DNA of 64,000 nt from the sequence record MN850584.1; one strand, given 5' to 3'. The notes beneath the pieces are model-generated. The model worked only from the letters and a program-made list of their open reading frames with translations, was not told the DNA's origin and made no database searches. The position numbers were made by a program, and so were the translations under genes. This document shows, piece after piece, positions 6,289 through 55,590 of this stretch. The number at the start of each line of letters is the position of its first letter. Position 1 is the first letter of the stretch. Source of the stretch: Escherichia phage arall.

Positions 6289-9164
6289 TGTCAAGAATTA
6301 AGCACAGAATTGACAATGTTTTTCAACTGATCGATGGACATATTCAGTTCTTAGATCGTAATACAGGTTTAACTGTAGATCCTACAGTGCAACACTATGT
6401 ATTAAACCCACAAAACGTTCTAGCTAATAACAGACACTTTATAAACTGGACTGCTCAAGAAGGGCAACCAAACGGGGATGCTACAACAGAAGGTCAATCC
6501 GTGCTTATTCTTGGTTGCGCTTATGCATACCTAGCTTCCGGCGATACAAAGTATTTAGACTCTGCTAAAAAATATTGGCAAGCCTATATAGATTACTTCT
6601 TTGGTGGTCAACCTATCCCAGATCCGCCAGCAAAGTATCGCCCTAACTGGATTATTAACGGTAAAGAACCACGTCTTGCACATTATCCTCTTACAGATGA
6701 TGGCTACCCTACACACGGAGGTTTTAAGGGTAGCTTAATGACGTGGACTAACGGTAGAACAGTTATTCCTCATGGTGCTCCACATTGGGGAGAATACCTT
6801 GACAAAGCATGGTTTGCTTTTAATGGTAATCTAGGATGGAACTCTGTAAACGCTACAGTATATGCTGTTAATGCAGATGGTACAACAGATTGGTCTAAGA
6901 AGGGAGATCAATGGGATGTTGATTGGATCATTGATCGTCTAGGACGTAAAGTTGATTGGGATGGAAATATCTTAGAAGAAGGTTTTCCAACATCTCAATA
7001 CGGAACAGTTCAACTAAAAAATACTTCTGTAAATGGTACATATAAATTTAACTACGCGACTTGTAACCCTGTTGAACACGGTGGTTATTTAATGGAGCGT
7101 AACACTATGTGGCATAACAGACCAGTTAACGTTCCGGTAGAAATGGGCTTTCAGGATAATGCGTCAGATGCCGAAACTTGGTGGTGTGATGCTAATTACC
7201 TGATGTACCAAATTACAGGGGAAAGAAAATATTGGCTATGCTGGCAGTCTTCACTGTTAGTGTGTCAAGATTATTCAAACATTGATATGTTTGATAAATT
7301 CTTCCGTAAGTCTACATATGCAACTATTCCGTTTACAGATGGCATCTCTTACGATTATTCGTATCCATCTACAGCAATACCTAAATATTCAAGAGATACT
7401 TTAGGTTATATTGTTATTAGACAAGATGTTGCTGCTCAAACAACATTAGAACAGCAATCCATTTGGTTTAAAGTTGATCAGAAATCTAAGTTACGAGTTC
7501 AGTTCCAAGGTGTAGATGATGCAGGACATGGTATTCTTTTCCGTCCAGAATTGGAGCTAAGTAAGACCAAAGATGAAAATAACACAGTAACTTACCGTTG
7601 TGGCTTACCATTAGGTACAGCTAATATGACAAGCATGGATATTCCATTATCCAGCTTTATGAGAAGTACCCCTCCAAATGGTGGAACATATATTATCGCA
7701 GATCCGCGAATTATTGTTGACTGGGGTGACAATACTGTGGTACAATTTAAGTATGTAACAGGTATTGCTGGAACTAATGATGACCAGATTGTTACTGCAT
7801 CAATGGATACGGATGGTGGTGTCACTGTTGGTTTTTGGTTAACTCCTACATCAAAAGCTAATGTTAAGTCTATTACATATAGAACATATGAGGATGACTT
7901 TAACATGACTATCACGGATGCTCAAGGTTGGAGATGGTGGGCTATGCTGACTAAAACGCAAGGAGCATGGAGTACGAAGACTTTATCAGCTTCTGATTTT
8001 CAGTTAAGTGCTTACCAGCCTAATCATCCAGATACAGATCCTAAACCTTCAGCAATAAATCTGACTGCGGTAGATCAGGTAAATTTAGTTCTGGATACGG
8101 CTCCTGTCAATGGTTTAACAGGAACAATAGATTTCTATTGTATTAACGATGTACCTGAAAGATATTCGTCATCTTCTGGTGATGATTATACAATGTACTT
8201 CCGTATTACTGTACAGGCTTCAAGTCCTCATACTGCTAAGTTAGGTGATTGTACTATTATTGACTATAAGTTAAATAGTCTTAATTACACACCAGGAATA
8301 ATTCCATTCTCTAATATCAGTGACCCAAACACTGCATTATACGATGGATGGCGTGGTATTCCATACCCAGGATACCAGTATCCTTCCTTATACTGTTTCG
8401 CAGGTAGGGATATTGATTGGACACGTTTAAACAACAGTATTGATTTCTTGTATGATGCTCAAATGTGGTTTTATAACACGTTTGATCCTGTGATGCCTGG
8501 GCCTATGGCACAAGCATATGTGTGGGATCGTTGGGATGCAAGAAAATACGGTGAACCTAATACGTTTACAATGAAACACTGGAATGAAAAAGCGTGGGAT
8601 GGTTATGAAGCTCGTGCATTCTACTGTGCTTGTCATGCTGTATACGAACTTGTACAAAGAGGAGAAACACCTCCTGAAAAACTAGTAACTGTTTGTAAAA
8701 ATTGGATCAACTACCTTAAATGGTTCCAAGACAATAATGATGGAAGAACACCAACTATCTTTAACCCAGATGGTACAGTTCTTGCGCCTATAGATGACTT
8801 TACTAGTCATATGTCTGCACTGTTTATGGCTGGTTGTTCAATCATGGGCTTGGCAGGTTATGATTCACAAATTCCAAACATTGGTATTGTAGCAGACAGA
8901 TGTTTTGATCTGATTCAGCAAAACTATATTGTGCTCTCCCCTAACCATCCAATGAATGGTTGCTGGAGTGTTGCACCGCGTCCAGATTCAGATAACGGAA
9001 TGTTCTTTGGTTTCCATGCTGGAGAACTATTACGTGGTTTTGGTTTATATGCTTTATATCGTAAACTAAATCCTCAAAACGCCTTACCAATTTTAGACAA
9101 TAGTAACATACCGACACTAACTGTTCTAACTATGAATGATATTAGTGTTGATGTAACCAAATAA
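6288..9164 (+). CDS. large baseplate-associated protein, possible glycosidase-like receptor-binding protein
   Basis: 958 aa; ATGA overlap with upstream gene; N-terminal region (ILGCAYAYLASGDTKYLDSAKKYWQAY) reminiscent of alpha/alpha-toroid glycosidases; Trp/Tyr-rich. Confidence 0.4.
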   Translation: MSRIKHRIDNVFQLIDGHIQFLDRNTGLTVDPTVQHYVLNPQNVLANNRHFINWTAQEGQPNGDATTEGQSVLILGCAYAYLASGDTKYLDSAKKYWQAYIDYFFGGQPIPDPPAKYRPNWIINGKEPRLAHYPLTDDGYPTHGGFKGSLMTWTNGRTVIPHGAPHWGEYLDKAWFAFNGNLGWNSVNATVYAVNADGTTDWSKKGDQWDVDWIIDRLGRKVDWDGNILEEGFPTSQYGTVQLKNTSVNGTYKFNYATCNPVEHGGYLMERNTMWHNRPVNVPVEMGFQDNASDAETWWCDANYLMYQITGERKYWLCWQSSLLVCQDYSNIDMFDKFFRKSTYATIPFTDGISYDYSYPSTAIPKYSRDTLGYIVIRQDVAAQTTLEQQSIWFKVDQKSKLRVQFQGVDDAGHGILFRPELELSKTKDENNTVTYRCGLPLGTANMTSMDIPLSSFMRSTPPNGGTYIIADPRIIVDWGDNTVVQFKYVTGIAGTNDDQIVTASMDTDGGVTVGFWLTPTSKANVKSITYRTYEDDFNMTITDAQGWRWWAMLTKTQGAWSTKTLSASDFQLSAYQPNHPDTDPKPSAINLTAVDQVNLVLDTAPVNGLTGTIDFYCINDVPERYSSSSGDDYTMYFRITVQASSPHTAKLGDCTIIDYKLNSLNYTPGIIPFSNISDPNTALYDGWRGIPYPGYQYPSLYCFAGRDIDWTRLNNSIDFLYDAQMWFYNTFDPVMPGPMAQAYVWDRWDARKYGEPNTFTMKHWNEKAWDGYEARAFYCACHAVYELVQRGETPPEKLVTVCKNWINYLKWFQDNNDGRTPTIFNPDGTVLAPIDDFTSHMSALFMAGCSIMGLAGYDSQIPNIGIVADRCFDLIQQNYIVLSPNHPMNGCWSVAPRPDSDNGMFFGFHAGELLRGFGLYALYRKLNPQNALPILDNSNIPTLTVLTMNDISVDVTK

Positions 9165-46966: not shown

Positions 46967-47437
46967 TTAGTCAGATTCCCAAATGTTGTCTTTCTTAACC
47001 CACATTCGTTGATTATCTGAACCTCTATAACGTTTCGTTGTTGGTTGATTCATATCATACTTACCATCTATCACTATGTCAACCAGTTTTTTAATTTTCT
47101 CTGGAATTTCTTCAAAAAGATATCCTGTATATAAGACAATATCTTTTTTGTTTCCAAAACAATCTCTTACCTTCTCAAGAACATACTCTACAGTGTCAAT
47201 GTTCTCTTTGTCAAGAGGTTCACCACCTAAAACTGTTAATCCTTTAATGAAAGGTCGAGATAAATCTTCCAAGATAAGATCTAATGTTTCAGCAGTGAAC
47301 TCTTGTCCGTAGTTATACGACCAGGCTTTCTGGTTAAAGCAGCCACGGCAACCGTGGCTACAACCGCTCACCCACAAAGAGCATCTTACACCGTCACCGT
47401 TGAGCATGTCAACAGGTTCATATCCGGCGTAATTCAA
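46967..47437 (-). CDS. nrdG: anaerobic ribonucleotide reductase activating protein
   Basis: 156 aa; radical-SAM cluster motif CSHGCRGC (CxxxCxxC); overlaps nrdD stop. Confidence 0.75.
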   Translation of the reverse strand: MNYAGYEPVDMLNGDGVRCSLWVSGCSHGCRGCFNQKAWSYNYGQEFTAETLDLILEDLSRPFIKGLTVLGGEPLDKENIDTVEYVLEKVRDCFGNKKDIVLYTGYLFEEIPEKIKKLVDIVIDGKYDMNQPTTKRYRGSDNQRMWVKKDNIWESD

Positions 47438-48375
47438 AAGTGTTTCTCCCTTTCTAGTACCTCTTGCATTTTACCTTTATTATAAGGGCGAGAGTTAGGG
47501 GCAGAAAGGTATCCTGACACTCTTCTGATCACAGATATGGATTCTTCTTCGTGATTACCGCAACTTGGACACTCGAAGCCTTTAGCTGTTGCCTTAAATT
47601 CACCATGAAAACCACATTTGAAACACTGATCTACAGGTTGGTTCACGCCAAAATAAGGGATTTTGTTGTAGGCATAATCTACAAGAGTTTCCAGTGCTTG
47701 CAAGTTATTTTTAAGGTTCGGTGTTTCTACATAACCTATGTTCCCACCATTACTAATTTGTGCAAAACCTTCCTCATAATCCCACTTTTGGAACGGGGTA
47801 GTGTGCATCCATACAGGTTGATGGAAAGAGTTTGTCAAGTAGTCACGATCAATAGAGCCAGGATAGCGATCATTTAACGCTTTGGCAAATTTATAGCACA
47901 AGGATTCTGCTGGTGTTCCATACAAACTAAAAGCTAAACCAGAACGTTCTTTAAATGTGCAACAGATATCCTTCATATATTGAAGGATGTTTTTACCCAT
48001 TGCTTTTGGATTGGTGTTACCTGGGTATAAAATCTCCATAGCTTCTGCTAAACCTACATAACCGATACTAATAGAGGCATAACCACCTTCGAATAGCTTA
48101 CCAATCTCTTCATTAGCTTCTAGTCGAGCTAAAGCCCCTTCCATAAACAATGTAGGGTTTTGAGATGCTTTGGTATGTCTAATACGGTTAACACGTAGCA
48201 TATGTGCCTTATACGCCATCTCCATATGTTGTTCCAACAGTTCAGTAAATAAGATGCCCTTTTCACGGGACTCTGCTGCAATGATAGGTAAGTTTAAAGA
48301 AACTACGCCTAAGTTGAAACGACCATCATATTTTTCACCTTGCTCTGTTGCATAGTATGACAAGAAACTTCTACA
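47434..48375 (-). CDS. nrdD: anaerobic ribonucleoside-triphosphate reductase, exon 2
   Basis: Begins CRSFLSYYATEQGEKYDGRFNLGVVSLNLP; C-terminal glycyl-radical region RRVSGYL and Zn ribbon CFKC…CPSC; the ORF-track start (GTG at 48405) is intron read-through; junction approximate. Confidence 0.7.
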   Translation of the reverse strand, partial: CRSFLSYYATEQGEKYDGRFNLGVVSLNLPIIAAESREKGILFTELLEQHMEMAYKAHMLRVNRIRHTKASQNPTLFMEGALARLEANEEIGKLFEGGYASISIGYVGLAEAMEILYPGNTNPKAMGKNILQYMKDICCTFKERSGLAFSLYGTPAESLCYKFAKALNDRYPGSIDRDYLTNSFHQPVWMHTTPFQKWDYEEGFAQISNGGNIGYVETPNLKNNLQALETLVDYAYNKIPYFGVNQPVDQCFKCGFHGEFKATAKGFECPSCGNHEEESISVIRRVSGYLSAPNSRPYNKGKMQEVLEREKHF

Positions 48376-49144
48376 CATTATGTTCAAAGTGGCTCGCAAG
48401 GCCACTCCCGCACCATTACGTGCTGCTGCATGTCACCATGCAGATCAGACTATATCTTCATGCTTAAAGCATGTCTACCATTTGGGGTGTCATAGGCTTA
48501 CACCCTACGCTGCTACATTCATCACAGCTAGTCGTTAGGCATTTCGTAACAGAACTCATAATCATAATTATTTGGTGCTCCGCGCTTTAAGATTGCAGAT
48601 ATTCTTTTTCTGTCCAACCCTAAAGCGTCAGCACAACATCTCAGACTTTTAAAGTAAAAAACTTCACCAGTAGCCTTATGAGTAGCTTTTACACTGTGAC
48701 ACCTTGTGTAGAAAGCATAACAGTTATTATCGTAACCCTCTTGCGTGTTGTCTGGACAAGATCCCCACTCAAGATTGTATACACTGTTGTCTTTCCTATT
48801 GTCACCTTTATGCTTCACATAAGGTAAATTGTCTGGATTGGGTAAAAACGCTTCAGCTACAAGTCTGTGCACCCGAAAGCAAACAGTTTTCTTGTTTTTA
48901 CGTATTCTGACAAGTTGGTATCCTGTGTTTATTTCTTCCCACGAGCGAAGGATTCTTTCATCCTTATACCTGGTACAATAAACATTTCCAAGCTCGTCAA
49001 TTTCATACCCTTCAAAATCACGAATTTGTTTTCTCATACCAGTACCCCCTTCTTCTGTGTTGGGAGTTCTGTTACGTTTAGCACGGGATTGTCTCGTTGA
49101 GAGTTCCCCCGTTTAGGCAGATTTTACATGAGCAGTTATAGTTT
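48376..49144 (-). mobile_element. group I intron interrupting nrdD
   Basis: 769 nt between …ATGGGT (exon ends in U) and TGT…; ends in G; contains P/Q-like pair (CUAAACGGGGGAAC / AAUCCCGUGC) 5' of the endonuclease ORF and R/S-like elements (CCUAACGACUAGC / GAAGAUAUAGUC) 3' of it. Confidence 0.65.
48528..49037 (-). CDS. intron-encoded HNH homing endonuclease
   Basis: 169 aa; FEGYEIDELGNVYCTRYKD…YQLVRI…VHRLVAEAF…KHKGDNRKDNSVYNLEW typical of HNH_3-type homing endonucleases; stop codon falls inside the R element. Confidence 0.65.
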   Translation of the reverse strand: MRKQIRDFEGYEIDELGNVYCTRYKDERILRSWEEINTGYQLVRIRKNKKTVCFRVHRLVAEAFLPNPDNLPYVKHKGDNRKDNSVYNLEWGSCPDNTQEGYDNNCYAFYTRCHSVKATHKATGEVFYFKSLRCCADALGLDRKRISAILKRGAPNNYDYEFCYEMPND

Positions 49145-50002
49145 ACCCATGCTTGTGACGCGACCATCTGAAGATCCTGTAACTTCTTTGTTTAAAGGTA
49201 CAGAGATAAAATCAGGATAAATGCGTTCAGCACAACACTCCATTGCCAGTTGCTTCAAATCATAGTTTGGATCGCCAGCTTTCATGTTAACACCATCTTC
49301 CAAGAAGAAGATAACTTTAGGAAACACAGGAGTTACCCTATCTTTTCCTAATCCTTGTTTGTGCACCATTAGGTAGTTTTTAGTGATCATTCTACCAAAA
49401 GCAGAGGTATCCAAACCTAAACTAATTGTTATAAAAGGTGACTGACCATTTACACTCATTAGAGTGTTCACCTGGTAGATTAAAGTTTGCATTGCATCAT
49501 AGACCTGTTTATCTACCATACGCATAGCAATATCATAATCGCCAACATCGGCATATATTTTATTAAAACTTGCTTTAACGTATTGACTAAGCCCAGTATC
49601 AACATGTGCACAAGTTTGTCCACCATATTGGCTAGAAGCTACTGCTTGAATAATTTGAGTTAGGACAGTAGTCGCTACACCGATAGATTTTGGTTTTTCA
49701 ATATGTGCATTACCAATACGGAAACCGTTCTCAAGCATATCTTGGTAATTTACCAGGCAACAATTAGTTAAAGGTGAGAGTAAATAATCTAAATCGTGAA
49801 TGTGACCATACCCACTTTTATGCCATTCTGCCAGATCTTCCGGTAAAATATGGGTCATTGCCATGTGCTTGCTTAGGATACCTGCTAGTAAGTCTCGGTG
49901 AGTATTAACAATCATTGCAGGTTTGTTTGCATTTTCACGAGTAAATTCTTCGGATGTTTGTTCGAGGAATCCGATTACATCCTCATATAGTTTTTGGGTC
50001 AT
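49145..50002 (-). CDS. nrdD: anaerobic ribonucleoside-triphosphate reductase, exon 1
   Basis: N-terminal NrdD portion ending …DGRVTSMG; the last two ORF-track codons (KL*) are intron-derived; GGAGG RBS. Confidence 0.7.
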
Positions 50003-51059: not shown

Positions 51060-51494
51060 TTAGTTTAAAATTTCTTTGGCAATGGTAGAAGCAAGTTTTC
51101 CATCATATTGATTAGGATACTCTGCTTTAAGGTGTTTCATCATATCTGGCATTTTCTTGCCTGTCAAGGCAAATTCTTCAGCAATCGCTCGAAGGTCATC
51201 TTCAGATAGCATTTCTGGTAAATATTTTTCCAGGGTGGTGATATCCCGCATAGCTCGCTCACATTTGCTAATGGAGGCATTAACTTTCTTAAGCGAGTCT
51301 AGTTCCTCTTTAGCGTGTGCAATACCAATCTTAACAATGTTAATCATAATATCATCTTCTGATTTATTCAGATTTGCCTTTTGAGTACGAGCAAGGTCAA
51401 ACTCACCAATAATATTAGTTAACAAAGCAAAAGCACCCTTATCGGTTGTACGTGCTAAGATACGATCTGCTTTCATTTGTGTCACAATAGACAT
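51060..51494 (-). CDS. GatB/YqeY-domain protein
   Basis: 144 aa; C-terminal KYLPEMLSEDDLRAIAEEFA…KKMPDMMKHLKAEYPNQYDGKLASTIAKEIL fits the YqeY pattern. Confidence 0.5.
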   Translation of the reverse strand: MSIVTQMKADRILARTTDKGAFALLTNIIGEFDLARTQKANLNKSEDDIMINIVKIGIAHAKEELDSLKKVNASISKCERAMRDITTLEKYLPEMLSEDDLRAIAEEFALTGKKMPDMMKHLKAEYPNQYDGKLASTIAKEILN

Positions 51495-51506
51495 TCTATT
51501 CTCCTC

Positions 51507-52079
51507 TTATTTGCCAATGCTTTGAATCTTATTTACAACACGGTTTATTGCCAGTGAAGCCCTAGGCTCCGCAATACCTGTTGCATAGATATAAGGATGA
51601 CCTTTTGGAGACTCCCTCATACCGAATGAACCTAATTCTAAACCATATTCATCCTCTACGTCAACCCCAATATTAGTGGGTACTAAATATGTTTTAACTC
51701 CATAATAAGTAGAGAAGAAACAGCGCATAGAGTTAGCATACTCTTCAATTGTAGCATCAGGGTAGAACTCAATCAACTCCAATTTCAAGAAAATATTAAA
51801 ATGGGTATCATCTAAATTTTCTTCTGTACGGTAACATGGCGTTAGTGCCATATACGGATTACCTGCTGCAAATTCAAAACCATCCTTCTCCATTTGCAGG
51901 AAAGATTGTTCTGCACTAGCTACATAGTATTTACCGTTAGGATGCCCTAATGGGCGATCCTCTTTATTTTCTGGTAGTGTGTACGCCAGTATATCAGCAT
52001 CCACGAGATATGGAACTTCTAACATTTGTGCAAATCGACCATAGTACTCAATAGCTTGAGCTATTACTGCAACATTCAT
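51507..52079 (-). CDS. hypothetical protein (enzyme-like, unassigned)
   Basis: 190 aa; no motif recognised. Confidence 0.45.
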   Translation of the reverse strand: MNVAVIAQAIEYYGRFAQMLEVPYLVDADILAYTLPENKEDRPLGHPNGKYYVASAEQSFLQMEKDGFEFAAGNPYMALTPCYRTEENLDDTHFNIFLKLELIEFYPDATIEEYANSMRCFFSTYYGVKTYLVPTNIGVDVEDEYGLELGSFGMRESPKGHPYIYATGIAEPRASLAINRVVNKIQSIGK

Positions 52080-52337: not shown

Positions 52338-55112
52338 TTAGTTTACCAGTTTATTTATATCTGGTAAAAGATTTATTTCACCTAAGAAATCACCTTCACC
52401 TTCCTCTAGCCAACTCTCATATGCTTGTGCATGATTATAGTTACCATCAAAAGAATCTGCAACAAATTTTTCTACAGTTTTTCGAGATGTGCCAGCGCCA
52501 AATACACCAAGTTTAATACCATTGATCGGTAAAGTGGTGCTTGTGGGTACTTTCTCTGTTGCAACACGGTTGATATCTATAATCTCCTGTACGGTTGTAT
52601 TCCATTGTAAGCATTTAACACAACGGGTGTGCGCTACATACAGTAGGTTTCGCTCTGCCTCTTCCAGTCCTACCCATTCACCAGTCTTTTTATCATAGTT
52701 GGAAGGAAAATCATTAGCAACAATAACCTGATCCCACTCCAAACCTTTAGACTTGTGTGCTGTAGTAAGTGTGACTTTTGCTGTAGGAGAATTTCTATGC
52801 GTTCTAAGTGTATGTGCTATAGTGTTTGCCTTACCAGAAACTACGATGTTTAACAAGCGTTTAGCATCTGGATCAGCCTCTGCACACTCAACAAATTCAT
52901 CCCAGTCTGCGTAAGGTAATACAGTTTCATGTTTTACTTTCTCAATATCTCCTCTCCGAAGAGCATTAACACTATCTACCATAGAGATAAAATCCCTGGT
53001 ATCTACGTTAATAATAATTTCTTCCCCATCTGCAATACGATCCATTGCCTCCATAAGCAAGGTTAAATTCTTGCGAAAGATGATAGTGTAAGGTTTTGTA
53101 TAGTCTACAACATCTGATTTGTAGCTACCTACTACAGTATCAAAGCCTTTACCAACCAAAGGGTGACGCAAAGGTTCTTTATCGCTTAAAATCATATTGG
53201 CAATGTTTGCCACTTTGGGGCCAAAACGGAAGCAAGCAGTTAATGGAAGCTCTGCCCCATACTTAGCTGTTTCAATCATCATATTAGAGCTACCTCTAAA
53301 TTGATAAATGCAGTTGTGGCTAAGAATTTCATTGCCAAAGAAGTTAGCAGTATCCTCTACTTCAATATCATAATAGATACCCTCACTATCTACAATGTCC
53401 ACAATCTCTTCTGCCGTTACAGTATCACCATCTTTTACCAACACAGACATGCCTTTAAACAAACCCGCTGCCGGAATTAAGTTATATTTGGCACTGTTCA
53501 CAGAGGACATGCATTCTTTTAAAGATGCAAACGGAACTATTTCAAGGATCTTTTGTGCAAAACTCAATGCTTCACGATAAGAATTGAAATATTTACGTAC
53601 ACGGTAACGACCTTCCAATTTAGCAGCACTTACGCTTACACCTGCTTTAATCAGTGAAGAATAGATCGGCATTTCACTTTCTGTCCACTCAAAACTAACT
53701 TGTGTTCCTTTACAACTTTGTGCTCGCAAAGTCACTGTTAGCATTTTTCTTTCATCTACTGCACAATTGATGCTGTGCCAGTGTGGATAAGCAAAATGAT
53801 AATCTTTATCCTCTAAAAGTTTAAAACCATTTTGTCCGAATTGTTCAAAGATGTTATTGATCCTTTCTTGATTAATGCCGCGTGAACTTGCTTCAAATAC
53901 ACAAGTAGGAATGCCATATTGTAAACTGTATGCCATTTCTTTTTCCATAGCAGCTTCACGGTTTTCAACAATATCCAACACCCATAATTTCTGTGCTTTT
54001 TCAGAACGTGTACGTTGCCCCAGTTTAGAAAAACCTTCTTTATCATCGAATTTGTTAGTGATCCCTACTCGGAAACCTAAATCTTTCCTCCACATTAGGT
54101 ATACCACCATCTGATCATCTTTCAGAACATAGGATGAAGCCCAAATACGATGGTTATGTGTCATATCTAAAGTTTTACCTGTGGCAGTAATAATATTCCT
54201 ACCTTTTGTACGTGTAGATAAAGTCTTATTTGTTACTTTTCTAAATGTAACTTTACCATTAGAGTAAGACTCTACCTTATCACCGATTTGCAGGTCTTTC
54301 ATTGTAACCTGACCATTCTCGGTATTAAGTACCGTGTTTTCCGACACACATTGGAATTCATCGCCCACTACCACAATTTGTTTTGCAGATTTAGCATTTC
54401 GCAGAATAGACAAGAATGCAGGGTTAACATCCTGGAATTCATCACCAAAAATAATATCATAACCAAGATCAGCACCAGACAATTCAAACAATTTTACATA
54501 GGTGTCATGCGTCATCAAAGTATCTGTATTAGGATCAATGCGCTCTCGCCACAATTGTTTTGCATACTTAACTACTTCTGTAATTAGTTTGTGTTCGTTA
54601 ATACCTTTTCTTTTAATATCTGCAAGATGTACACTAGGAAAATGTTTACGGCTGATAAAAGGATCATCCGAAAATTCAAACTTACCTACGGTTTGTTTGA
54701 TCATTAAACCAATCATAGCACGAGTTAACAGTGTTTTCCCTCGTTTATCAATAAGATTATTAATCTTAAATTTCTTTGCTATCTCGCTACCTGTACCTGC
54801 AACGTTAACATACTGTCCTTCTGGTCGTGACAGTTTTGCACGTAAACGATGATCCAGGAATTGATAGCAAATAGAATGCAATGTACGGCATTCTACATTT
54901 AGTGGCATCTTACGTCGTGCTTCTTCTGCCATGCTTTTATTGAAAGCTAAGTAAAGAATGCGATCTTCTGTACTGTTAGCCAGCAAATAAAGTGTTGACG
55001 TTTTGCCTGATCCAGATTTAGCTTGGATAGTTAAAAAGCGATGGTCTGGAAAAGCCTCCTTAATAGCTGTTTGCTCTTCTGTTGGAGTGAAGCTCAACTC
55101 TTTCTTAGCCAT
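52338..55112 (-). CDS. SF1 (UvrD/Rep-like) DNA helicase, intein-containing
   Basis: Start set at MAKKELSF (GAGG RBS); Walker A AKSGSGKT, motif II FGDEFQD, motif III VVVGDEFQ/CIYQFRGSS split by the intein, motif VI-like TAHKSKGLEWDQV. Confidence 0.7.
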   Translation of the reverse strand: MAKKELSFTPTEEQTAIKEAFPDHRFLTIQAKSGSGKTSTLYLLANSTEDRILYLAFNKSMAEEARRKMPLNVECRTLHSICYQFLDHRLRAKLSRPEGQYVNVAGTGSEIAKKFKINNLIDKRGKTLLTRAMIGLMIKQTVGKFEFSDDPFISRKHFPSVHLADIKRKGINEHKLITEVVKYAKQLWRERIDPNTDTLMTHDTYVKLFELSGADLGYDIIFGDEFQDVNPAFLSILRNAKSAKQIVVVGDEFQCVSENTVLNTENGQVTMKDLQIGDKVESYSNGKVTFRKVTNKTLSTRTKGRNIITATGKTLDMTHNHRIWASSYVLKDDQMVVYLMWRKDLGFRVGITNKFDDKEGFSKLGQRTRSEKAQKLWVLDIVENREAAMEKEMAYSLQYGIPTCVFEASSRGINQERINNIFEQFGQNGFKLLEDKDYHFAYPHWHSINCAVDERKMLTVTLRAQSCKGTQVSFEWTESEMPIYSSLIKAGVSVSAAKLEGRYRVRKYFNSYREALSFAQKILEIVPFASLKECMSSVNSAKYNLIPAAGLFKGMSVLVKDGDTVTAEEIVDIVDSEGIYYDIEVEDTANFFGNEILSHNCIYQFRGSSNMMIETAKYGAELPLTACFRFGPKVANIANMILSDKEPLRHPLVGKGFDTVVGSYKSDVVDYTKPYTIIFRKNLTLLMEAMDRIADGEEIIINVDTRDFISMVDSVNALRRGDIEKVKHETVLPYADWDEFVECAEADPDAKRLLNIVVSGKANTIAHTLRTHRNSPTAKVTLTTAHKSKGLEWDQVIVANDFPSNYDKKTGEWVGLEEAERNLLYVAHTRCVKCLQWNTTVQEIIDINRVATEKVPTSTTLPINGIKLGVFGAGTSRKTVEKFVADSFDGNYNHAQAYESWLEEGEGDFLGEINLLPDINKLVN
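53313..54350 (-). mobile_element. intein (346 aa) inserted in helicase motif III
   Basis: N-terminal CVSENTVLNTENG, block B-like MTHNH, C-terminal …EILSHN followed by extein Cys; removing it restores VVVGDEFQ-CIYQFRGSS. Confidence 0.6.
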
Positions 55113-55113
55113 T

Positions 55114-55590
55114 TCAACCTCTCTTAATTTGTTTAACAAGCATAGGAACAAAATCTCGTTTTAAAATTTGTTCAATAATATGATCAGGTAGCTGTTGGAA
55201 ATTATAATTAAAAGCTACTGTCTCACCTTTAGGTGTTTCTACCCGCACATATAACATGTTACGAAGTTTATCCACTTGTGCTGTGTATTCTAAACCATGT
55301 AATTGATGCATTGCAAACATCAAATCATCAGTTTCAGTTTGGAATCTATCATTTGCTTGCATTAAGGACAAGGTAAAAGGTAGATTTTCCCTAAGAGCCA
55401 CCTTCTTAGGAACTAGTGAAGGAAAATACTCACCAATAACTTCCTGTGTAAGCTGGATACACTCTTTTTCAAGTTGGTTTTGTTCCTTAAGTTCACAAAC
55501 ACTTTTTTGTAAAGTGTTAACCTCTTTTTGCAAAGCTGCTAGTTGAGCACTTAACTTTCTTTTTTGATTACGACCAAAACGTTTAGACAT
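55114..55590 (-). CDS. hypothetical protein
   Basis: 158 aa; basic N-terminus with coiled coil. Confidence 0.45.
   Translation of the reverse strand: MSKRFGRNQKRKLSAQLAALQKEVNTLQKSVCELKEQNQLEKECIQLTQEVIGEYFPSLVPKKVALRENLPFTLSLMQANDRFQTETDDLMFAMHQLHGLEYTAQVDKLRNMLYVRVETPKGETVAFNYNFQQLPDHIIEQILKRDFVPMLVKQIKRG

Follow-up and report, generated by a model that had tools for sequence, protein, structure and literature searches.

A class 1 intein in motif III of a phage UvrD-like helicase, with a conserved and putatively GIY-YIG-like central domain

The UvrD-like helicase gene of Escherichia phage arall (MN850584.1), a phi92-like coliphage of the genus Justusliebigvirus, is interrupted by an in-frame 1038-nt insertion located exactly between the Gln and the Ser/Cys of motif III (GDxxQ/[SC]IYxFRG, the slash marking the insertion point). 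We conclude that the insert is a full-length class 1 mobile intein, and we give a probability of about 0.85 to this explanation as a whole, including splicing, homing and the reading of the central domain proposed below. The intein is already known, being annotated in GenBank records of sister phages, and its finding by itself is a rediscovery; the new question is the type of nuclease that it carries. Searching the window, i.e. the whole 64,000-nt stretch of phage DNA analysed here, for a second intein or a further copy of the central domain gave none. The features are as follows:

52338..55112, minus strand: helicase precursor CDS, 924 aa, 104.6 kDa, UvrD/Rep-type SF1
54351..55112, minus strand: N-extein, aa 1-254, ending in ...VVVGDEFQ, the first half of motif III
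53313..54350, minus strand: intein, class 1, 346 aa, 39.3 kDa, with Cys1, T64-x-x-H67 (block B), D328 (block F) and H345-N346
54126..54350, minus strand: N-terminal Hint segment with blocks A and B (intein aa 1-75)
53766..54125, minus strand: N-half of the central domain, intein aa 76-195, predicted beta-beta-alpha-beta-alpha followed by a long helix; putative GIY-YIG-like nuclease core
53481..53765, minus strand: C-half of the central domain, intein aa 196-290, predicted beta-beta-alpha-beta-alpha-beta module
53313..53480, minus strand: C-terminal Hint segment with blocks F and G (intein aa 291-346), ending in ...EILSHN; matched by NCBIfam intein_Cterm and Pfam Intein_splicing
52338..53312, minus strand: C-extein including the stop codon, opening with the +1 Cys (53310..53312) and continuing as IYQFRGSS, which completes motif III
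54351..54377, minus strand: upstream flank of ~27 nt, with dense differences from the same-genus empty alleles
53263..53312, minus strand: downstream flank of ~50 nt, co-varying with the intein (occupied, Cys+1 and GSSNMM[IV]ETA; empty, Ser+1 and GSQNMMKETS)

The 924-aa CDS starts from the same ATG as the annotated orthologous CDS of phage PaulScherrer, the program-made ORF reaching further, to a TTG at 55151. Its product belongs to the UvrD/Rep/PcrA-type SF1 helicases: the Pfam domains UvrD-helicase (PF00580, 45.2 bits for a cut-off of 23), UvrD_C (PF13361, 42 bits for a cut-off of 25.6) and AAA_19 (39.8 bits) all score above their thresholds, PHROG 1967 'DNA helicase' is matched with E = 1.5e-162, and excision of the insert restores motif III, GDxxQ-SIYxFRG. 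The spliced sequence matches FBH1 (E = 1.7e-31) and, locally, UvrD. Neither alignment has a gap across the junction, in agreement with the first-pass annotation, which had proposed that excision rebuilds a motif III of the UvrD type.

Pfam and NCBIfam models for inteins and Hint domains recognise both ends of the insert. NCBIfam intein_Cterm reaches 23.3 bits (cut-off 15.6) and Pfam Hint 29.9 bits (cut-off 29.7) with the insert scanned alone, whereas Pfam Intein_splicing, at 33.7 bits, is just under its gathering score of 35.8 and NCBIfam intein_Nterm, at 20.5 bits, is under its cut-off of 24.5. The predicted structure of the insert is likewise a Hint fold. A word-indexed homologue search gave 2 proteins only, and the family was therefore taken from an alignment query and an exhaustive search of representatives. 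The intein carries the full set of splicing residues, which among 87 members sharing at most 50% identity are conserved at 100% (C1, H67 and N346), 92% (D328) and 91% (H345). The MTHNH motif, at first noted only as block B-like, provides the TxxH of block B (T64-H65-N66-H67), with H67 invariant in the 87 sequences. All 86 full-length relatives start with Cys1; they end in HN (78) or SN (8), and their +1 residue is Ser in 71, Cys in 14 and Thr in 1. Here, the intein ends with H345-N346 followed by Cys. In 83 of the 86, the intein lies at GDxxQ/[SCT]IYxFRG of UvrD/PcrA-like proteins, and an actinobacterial PcrA-like protein (P0010) has one at GDxxQ/SIYxFRG.

Within the same genus, the site is either occupied or empty. 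The same element is found in the same gene and at the same site in PaulScherrer (MZ501100, bas60_0082), JohannJBalmer (MZ501084) and vB_EcoM_ZYD (PQ110661), with 97.7-99.7% amino-acid identity; PaulScherrer and JohannJBalmer belong to the BASEL collection, for which inteins were, according to its paper, identified via comparative annotation. The mat_peptide of the sister records measures 1041 nt (347 codons) against 1038 nt here, and therefore takes in the codon of the +1 Cys, which by convention belongs to the C-extein. These records leave the type of the endonuclease domain unstated. On the other hand, the helicases of EmilieFrey, Paula, alia and 92CQ, 98-99% identical, lack precisely the insert, the gap being of exactly 1038 nt in the EmilieFrey, Paula and alia alleles. 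Empty alleles read GDE[FY]Q-SIYQFRGS at the site. Overall, the intein is present in ~36 of 55 records with exteins at least 95% identical. The catalytic residues, the predicted Hint fold, the empty same-genus alleles and the same-site family together bear out the first-pass proposal of an intein placed exactly in motif III of an SF1 helicase. We give practically no credence to the reading of the 346 residues as an insertion domain that is native to this lineage of helicases and never removed. Such a domain would break a motif that is uninterrupted in FBH1 and UvrD, whereas the insert is precisely missing from nearly identical orthologues, has a predicted Hint fold with all the catalytic residues, and has homologues inserted in unrelated hosts, i.e. 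a family 11 glycosyltransferase (P0011) and adenine methyltransferases.

The sequence around the insertion differs between the two kinds of alleles. The +1 residue is Cys in 4/4 occupied alleles and Ser in 4/4 empty ones. Compared with Paula, 25 of the 38 substitutions fall between -27 and +50 nt, and outside this 77-nt tract the gene of PaulScherrer (occupied) and that of EmilieFrey (empty) share 98-99% identity. Note that the upstream part of the cluster could alternatively consist of changes found only in the empty alleles of Justusliebigvirus, which read VVVVGDEYQ. The empty alleles of other genera read IVVVGDEFQ, the same as the occupied allele, and so does the empty allele of the phi1_175008 or ASO2A type. 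The clustered tract recurs when two 'alia' genomes are compared. These two genomes were considered as the before and after states of a single homing event, which we rejected because they differ by ~2% throughout.

We infer both splicing and DNA cleavage by the intein. In the proposed scheme, the 104.6-kDa precursor would splice itself: Cys1 would attack the N-terminal junction, the side chain of Cys+1 would then receive the N-extein, and cyclisation of Asn346 followed by an S-to-N shift would form the peptide bond. The expected products are a 65.3-kDa helicase with motif III intact (Cys replacing the usual Ser), whose junction peptide would be ...VGDEFQCIYQFR, and a free intein of 39.3 kDa. 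When two phages infect the same cell, the free intein would use its central domain to cut an intein-less helicase allele near the codons of motif III, and repair on the occupied allele would copy the intein together with ~27 nt upstream and ~50 nt downstream.

The putative nuclease role is attributed to the central domain (~215 residues), a member of a large and conserved nuclease-like family of 677 clusters that has not yet been classified. No other part of the intein is as well conserved as this domain, above all its N-half: identity to the KP13-16 intein is 69% in the central domain versus 55% in the N-terminal Hint part, and dN/dS is 0.11-0.23 (0.11 for the N-half against the KP2025 intein). 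Some 11 of its positions show at least 95% conservation across the 87 sequences, and those of the N-half comprise Y84, M86, G92, R94, G96, R113, E117, W123, E138, P148 and P189. The first-pass annotation had seen no obvious LAGLIDADG or HNH motif and had suggested a divergent or decayed endonuclease domain. The former observation holds, no such profile being matched; decay is rejected, given the conservation of the domain, a dN/dS of about 0.1-0.2 and the 677 clusters. The C-half is mosaic relative to the KP2025 intein: it is 75% identical with a dS of 0.96, compared with a dS of ~0.1 in the N-terminal Hint part and central N-half and of 0.40 in the C-terminal Hint part. It may possibly serve as a DNA-recognition module, which we consider its most likely role; a structure search with this half gave no specific fold match.

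Sequence profiles do not place the domain in a known family. No family was matched when the central domain was searched against Pfam, NCBIfam and PDB sequences, and scans against Pfam, NCBIfam and PHROGs gave no nuclease family for the complete intein, for the central domain or either of its halves, for 33 family members or for the family consensus. Their only matches were one marginal GIY-YIG hit, described below, and PHROG 25003 (function unknown). Against PDB sequences, phmmer and profile searches started from the intein and from the central profile returned weak Hint matches or noise only. A very divergent LAGLIDADG or HNH endonuclease, i.e. one of the two usual types in inteins, is very improbable: neither is matched in Pfam or NCBIfam even at E = 10, and the predicted topology is neither alpha-beta-beta-alpha-beta-beta-alpha nor beta-beta-alpha-metal. 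In structural alignments, PI-PfuI, PI-PkoII, PI-SceI and TliVMA cover ~130-155 residues corresponding to the Hint domain only, their endonuclease domains leaving the central region unaligned, and the central domain has no conserved set of His, Asn and Cys as an HNH enzyme would.

The likeliest reading of the N-half, to which we give somewhat better than even odds, is a nuclease core of the GIY-YIG type that has diverged very far. Its predicted topology is beta-beta-alpha-beta-alpha, and Foldseek searches of BFVD gave weak matches repeatedly named GIY-YIG endonucleases. With hhalign, the central profile aligns to the profile of the UvrC N-domain with a score of 18.7 (P = 0.008, at a probability of only 5%), a score reached by 0 of 200 column shuffles. 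This alignment pairs VY with GVY, FRVG with IYVG, and E138 with the catalytic Glu of UvrC, which lies in its LLLEH motif. The 'GIY' element has a counterpart in V83-Y84 of strand 1, where Y84 is 99% conserved and aligned to the UvrC GVY. The 'YIG' element does not: the family reads [FY]93-R94-[VI]95-G96, with an invariant Arg where the second Tyr is expected, the Gly being invariant. GIY-YIG enzymes are further defined by a conserved Arg located centrally and a conserved Glu in the C-terminal part (Dunin-Horkawicz 2006); R113 (97%) lies in predicted helix 1 and E138 (98%) in predicted helix 2, although hhalign does not align R113 to the UvrC Arg. No counterpart of the conserved Asn of GIY-YIG enzymes was identified in the central domain. 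The cuts made by GIY-YIG enzymes lie away from the insertion point and leave 3' overhangs of 2 nt. The Pfam GIY-YIG model matches neither the window sequence nor the family consensus, and 1 of 33 members only marginally (E = 0.063); hhalign gave no alignment of the central profile with the catalytic domain of I-TevI, used as a single sequence.

The domain could instead be a homing nuclease of another fold and a new family, the GIY-YIG signals reflecting convergence on a small beta-beta-alpha-beta-alpha unit. Every one of these signals is below conventional significance, R94 takes the place of the second motif Tyr, and a GIY-YIG core is about half as large as the domain. We regard this reading as a serious contender, though a clearly less probable one than a GIY-YIG-type core.

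The relatives of the intein that stand alone bear on whether the domain is a nuclease at all. In ten short homologues, Cys1 and the terminal Asn are missing, as is the block B His in most of them; all ten keep the central residues, except for E117, missing in 2. At 5 of 5 loci examined (P0002, P0004, P0005, P0006 and P0008), the short relative is a separate gene directly adjoining an uninterrupted UvrD-like helicase gene, and consists of Hint remnants and the central domain, with the splicing residues lost. These remnants are the reason for inferring the direction from intein to free-standing gene. It is on account of such free-standing copies beside an uninterrupted helicase that we argue for a homing nuclease in the central domain. 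A spliced-out intein whose central domain is a structural or DNA-binding passenger, spread by ordinary recombination between co-infecting phages or with the aid of other phage nucleases, is in our view unlikely, as the domain is under strong purifying selection, is better conserved than the rest of the intein, and is kept next to helicase genes by descendants that have lost the splicing residues, just as homing endonuclease genes typically lie beside the genes that they target. Moreover, the residues conserved in it (Y, R, R, E, E) have charged or aromatic side chains, in keeping with an active site. The free-standing relatives beside intact helicase genes would represent natural intermediates in the life cycle of inteins and homing endonucleases.

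We hold at even odds a broader proposal, that the central domain defines an unrecognised family of intein-resident homing endonucleases (at least 677 clusters, mostly at motif III of UvrD-like helicases), derived from GIY-YIG enzymes, members of which have repeatedly left the host gene, lost the splicing residues and become free-standing nuclease genes beside an intact helicase with Ala at +1. Surveys and reviews give LAGLIDADG and HNH as the in-frame endonuclease types of inteins, Vsr-like and endonuclease VII-like domains being rare additions, mostly out-of-frame or antisense; a large family invisible to Pfam would therefore add a homing endonuclease type. GIY-YIG enzymes have been described as absent from inteins (Dunin-Horkawicz 2006; Dassa 2009), a long-quoted exception that would fall if the domain is GIY-YIG-like. 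In the literature searched, we found neither an in-frame GIY-YIG intein nor a described endonuclease of a UvrD intein, although this does not prove that none exists. The system lends itself unusually well to testing, the occupied PaulScherrer and the empty EmilieFrey both being BASEL phages with E. coli K-12 as recorded host.

Among known systems, the closest in host family are the inteins of bacterial UvrD/PcrA helicases, of which the survey of Novikova et al. 2016 (PMC4760082) lists 16. The relatives found here share the insertion point GDxxQ/SIYxFRG, but the present host is a phage helicase and its +1 residue is Cys, Ser being commoner. Unlike in the LAGLIDADG inteins PI-SceI, PI-PfuI, PI-PkoII and TliVMA, the domain inserted here is not of the LAGLIDADG type. 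The predicted core resembles the beta-beta-alpha-beta-alpha core of the GIY-YIG nucleases I-TevI (catalytic domain, 1ln0), UvrC (N-domain, 1ycz), SLX1 and PD-T4-3 (9u75): strand 1 carries a conserved Tyr, strand 2 the segment [FY]-R-[VI]-G, and helices 1 and 2 an Arg and a Glu, respectively; the structural and profile similarities are weak, all of them pointing to that superfamily, and none is significant at the sequence level. Finally, the short relatives resemble yeast HO, a free-standing nuclease considered to descend from an endonuclease associated with an intein (Taylor and Stoddard 2012), as well as the free-standing phage homing endonuclease genes found by their targets, in being separate genes near an intact helicase. 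The HO-like state is seen in relatives from metagenomic contigs only, whereas the element of the window is still a complete in-frame intein; if the broader proposal is true, the passage of family members to free-standing genes would be a phage counterpart of the yeast intein-to-HO transition.

The first-pass annotation described a 937-codon open reading frame carrying a 346-aa insert followed by Cys, and the ORF list and exact mapping give both as written:

52338..55151, minus strand: helicase open reading frame, 937 codons counted from TTG
53313..54350, minus strand: insert, CVSENTVL...EILSHN, 346 aa, next residue Cys

The helicase likely starts at the ATG at 55112, 1 base past the stop codon of the preceding gene; the orthologue in phage PaulScherrer (MZ501100) is annotated from this codon, and the precursor then counts 924 aa. 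Removal of the insert, whose flanks carry the Pfam domains UvrD-helicase, AAA_19 and UvrD_C, joins ...VVVGDEFQ to CIYQFRGSS.... That excision restores helicase motif III was borne out, as the junction is ungapped in the alignment of the spliced protein to FBH1, a UvrD-family helicase of humans (E 1.7e-31), and E. coli UvrD is also matched over motifs II-III.

Comparison with intein models, structure prediction and comparison with intein-free homologues had been proposed as checks, and all three agree with an intein in motif III. Both insert ends match Pfam Intein_splicing, Hint and Hint_2 and NCBIfam intein_Nterm and intein_Cterm, with scores some just below and some above the curated cut-offs, while the middle has no match to the intein/Hint models of either database. 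AlphaFold2, given 12 sequences, modelled the insert with confidence (pLDDT 89, pTM 0.86). Among 87 family members, each taken from a separate 50%-identity cluster, the splicing residues Cys1, block B His67 and Asn346 are conserved in 100%, block F Asp328 in 92% and His345 in 91%, and all 86 relatives have Ser, Cys or Thr as the first C-extein residue (+1). Finally, exactly 1038 nt are absent from the helicase genes of phages EmilieFrey, Paula and alia. The first-pass annotation is thus right on the identity and position of the insert, which carries the residues that define a class 1 intein and is predicted from them to splice: translation would give a precursor with a computed size of 104.6 kDa, and class 1 splicing would release a 578-aa, 65.3-kDa helicase with motif III restored as Q-C-IYQFRG and a 39.3-kDa intein.

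In DNA, the region and its best matches, phi92-like coliphages such as ALITA, Antha, VEcB and phi92, are 97.6-99.4% identical; wherever the taxonomy of these phages was read, it gave genus Justusliebigvirus within subfamily Stephanstirmvirinae. PaulScherrer is annotated with an "intein-containing UvrD / Rep family helicase precursor" in which helicase and intein each have a mat_peptide of their own, MZ501084 and PQ110661 carry the like annotation, the BASEL paper states that it identified inteins via comparative annotation, and a survey places UvrD among intein-bearing bacterial proteins (Novikova et al, 2016; PMC4760082). Because the element is annotated in public records and inteins were already reported in UvrD helicases, the intein is already known and the finding as first stated adds no novelty. 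A 2024 paper states that no inteins were reported in coliphages, and in many sister records the product is still given as "hypothetical protein" or just "DNA helicase". Note that the intein mat_peptide of MZ501100 (locus L001, 2473-3513; 1041 nt, 347 codons) runs one codon past the C-terminal end of the 346-aa intein and takes in the +1 Cys, which should belong to the C-extein. Four "Campylobacter phage" records (MG065639, MG065645, MG065656 and MG065689), with Campylobacter jejuni given as host, match this coliphage region at 99.0% identity and look like mislabelled or contaminant Justusliebigvirus genomes.

We found 55 phage records with at least 95% identity to the spliced helicase by tblastn, ~36 of them with the intein, two matched pieces being read as an occupied allele and one piece as an empty one. 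The empty genes of EmilieFrey, Paula and alia differ from the occupied gene by <1% outside the junction; 25 of the 38 differences from Paula fall in the stretch from -27 to +50 nt around the insertion point, and the alia pair displays the same cluster, with 27 substitutions in 78 nt. Position +1 is Cys in all four occupied alleles compared (window, PaulScherrer, and Klebsiella phages KP2025 and KP13-16), followed in three by GSSNMM[IV]ETA and in the more distant KP13-16 by GSVNAMEKIS, whereas the four empty alleles compared, from three lineages, all have Ser and GSQNMMK[EQ]T[SA]. Therefore, the downstream tract travels with the intein, which is what co-conversion in homing produces. Upstream, the pattern is more ambiguous: the occupied allele has IVVVGDEFQ, the same as empty alleles of other genera, and the VVVVGDEYQ of Justusliebigvirus empty alleles could be ancestral or a resistant target. 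In the mechanism we propose, the intein would, in a mixed infection, cut the empty allele close to the codons of motif III, and repair would copy it with short flanks into that allele.

An exhaustive search with the central 229 residues alone returned 677 representative clusters at E ≤0.001, 67 of them at ≤1e-30. Full-length intein relatives make up 86 of the 154 sequences compared, and 83 of these 86 are inserted at GDxxQ|[SC]IYxFRG of UvrD/PcrA-like proteins; the exceptions (P0007, P0081 and P0086) are inserted in or beside helicase motif II (FIDE|C, MVDE|C). Other host proteins of the same intein family, with its central domain, are a family 11 glycosyltransferase (P0011) and phage adenine methyltransferases; the cases at other sites and in other hosts include matches in Streptococcus and Bacillus phages. 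Giant UvrD-like helicases (P0013-P0019 and P0024; 1820-2536 aa) hold two or three copies at different positions.

The first-pass annotation saw no obvious LAGLIDADG or HNH motif and considered that any endonuclease domain might be divergent or decayed. The former stands, as no LAGLIDADG or HNH model matches the central domain at any threshold, and its ~215 residues have no Pfam, NCBIfam or PDB sequence match, whether the window sequence, 33 members or family consensus sequences are used. Decay is ruled out: Y84, M86, G92, R94, G96, R113, E117, W123, A134, E138, P148 and P189, among others, are 95-100% conserved in the 87 sequences, dN/dS against the KP2025 intein is 0.11 for the central N-terminal half (residues 76-195), and against KP13-16 this half is the best conserved intein segment (69% identity; 55% for the N-terminal Hint part).

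The family of GIY-YIG nucleases is defined by the motifs GIY and YIG together with a central Arg and, towards the C-terminus, a Glu (Dunin-Horkawicz, 2006), and is said to be absent from inteins (Dassa, 2009; Dunin-Horkawicz, 2006). The structure model predicts a first unit of beta(81-88), beta(92-97), alpha(108-116), beta(121-128) and alpha(131-145), after which comes a long helix (161-181). The first unit has the topology of the GIY-YIG core, and conserved residues lie at the motif places: V-Y84 on strand 1, [FY]-R94-[VI]-G96 on strand 2, R113 on helix 1 and E138 on helix 2. A second module, beta-beta-alpha-beta-alpha-beta, is predicted at 205-282. In Foldseek against viral models, other intein hosts ranked highest and were followed by many weakly matching GIY-YIG endonucleases (E 0.01-0.1). 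With hhalign, the 87-sequence profile aligned in the expected register to a 100-sequence UvrC N-domain profile with a score of 18.7 (P 0.008, probability only 5%), which none of 200 column shuffles reached (mean 11.3, sd 2.2). The weak signals from these independent tests all point to GIY-YIG; against it, the Tyr of the second motif is replaced by Arg, the conserved Asn was not found in the central domain, and I-TevI as a single sequence gave no hhalign alignment to the central profile. On balance we lean towards kinship with GIY-YIG, the endonuclease type being neither LAGLIDADG nor HNH and possibly a divergent GIY-YIG.

Against KP2025 (locus L004), intein residues 196-290, the C-terminal half of the central domain (window 53481..53765, minus strand), are 75% identical, with dS 0.96, versus 92-97% and ~0.1 for the N-terminal Hint part and central N-terminal half, and 98% and 0.40 for the C-terminal Hint part; the intein is mosaic, and this suggests that the 196-290 module was exchanged between inteins.

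The anaerobic ribonucleotide reductase gene nrdD is also interrupted in the window (47434..50002, minus strand):

49136..50002, minus strand: nrdD first part, Pfam NRDD positions 1-263
48528..49037, minus strand: ORF between the parts, HNH_3 and I-HmuI NUMOD-like matches
47434..48405, minus strand: nrdD second part, Pfam NRDD positions 263-562 and glycyl-radical domain

Rfam Intron_gpI matches at 48426..48533 (minus strand) with 39.3 bits against a gathering score of 50 (E 2.7e-8, 1-kb search), and nrdD of alia is annotated as uninterrupted (600 aa). The interruption is probably a group I intron that encodes an HNH homing endonuclease, which would put another mobile element 4 kb away from the intein. 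Small genes immediately downstream of the helicase (51060..52079, minus strand) are annotated inconsistently in sister records, a 190-aa product as "putative tRNA synthetase", "seryl-tRNA synthetase" or "histidyl tRNA synthetase" and a 144-aa product as "YqeY-like", "aspartyl/glutamyl-tRNA synthetase" or "tRNA amidotransferase"; ARAGORN found no tRNA genes in the window.

Ten short intein homologues (265-366 aa) lack Cys1, mostly have Gln for the block B His, and end in HS, HD, RN, HE or similar rather than HN. All ten keep Y84, M86, G92, R94, G96, R113, W123, E138 and P148, and eight keep E117. In the five loci examined, one of them on a 163-kb contig, they are separate genes directly adjoining an uninterrupted UvrD-like helicase gene (four just downstream, one just upstream); each retains remnants of Hint and an intact central domain yet lacks the splicing residues:

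L008, 4001-5002: free-standing intein homologue
L010, 4001-4798: free-standing intein homologue
L011, 3340-4392: free-standing intein homologue
L012, 160-1176: free-standing intein homologue
L013, 510-1418: free-standing intein homologue

The three complete neighbouring helicases all read GDxxQ-A-IYxFR, and the Ala at +1 offers no nucleophile to support splicing. At L010, a metagenomic contig, a classical Pfam GIY-YIG gene (6306-7112, minus strand; 268 aa) lies on the other side of the helicase gene, which is therefore placed between two putative homing endonuclease genes.

Descendants of the intein family thus seem to have become free-standing genes beside their presumed target, with only the central conserved residues kept. 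A homing endonuclease gene behaves in this way, and this is the strongest indirect argument for the central domain as the nuclease; overall, we put the probability that it is the homing nuclease, of whatever type, at about 0.75. The endonuclease type and the free-standing derivatives lend the locus moderate interest and make it a ready experimental system. The free-standing relatives bring to mind the yeast HO endonuclease, for which an origin from an intein-associated enzyme has been proposed (Taylor & Stoddard, 2012).
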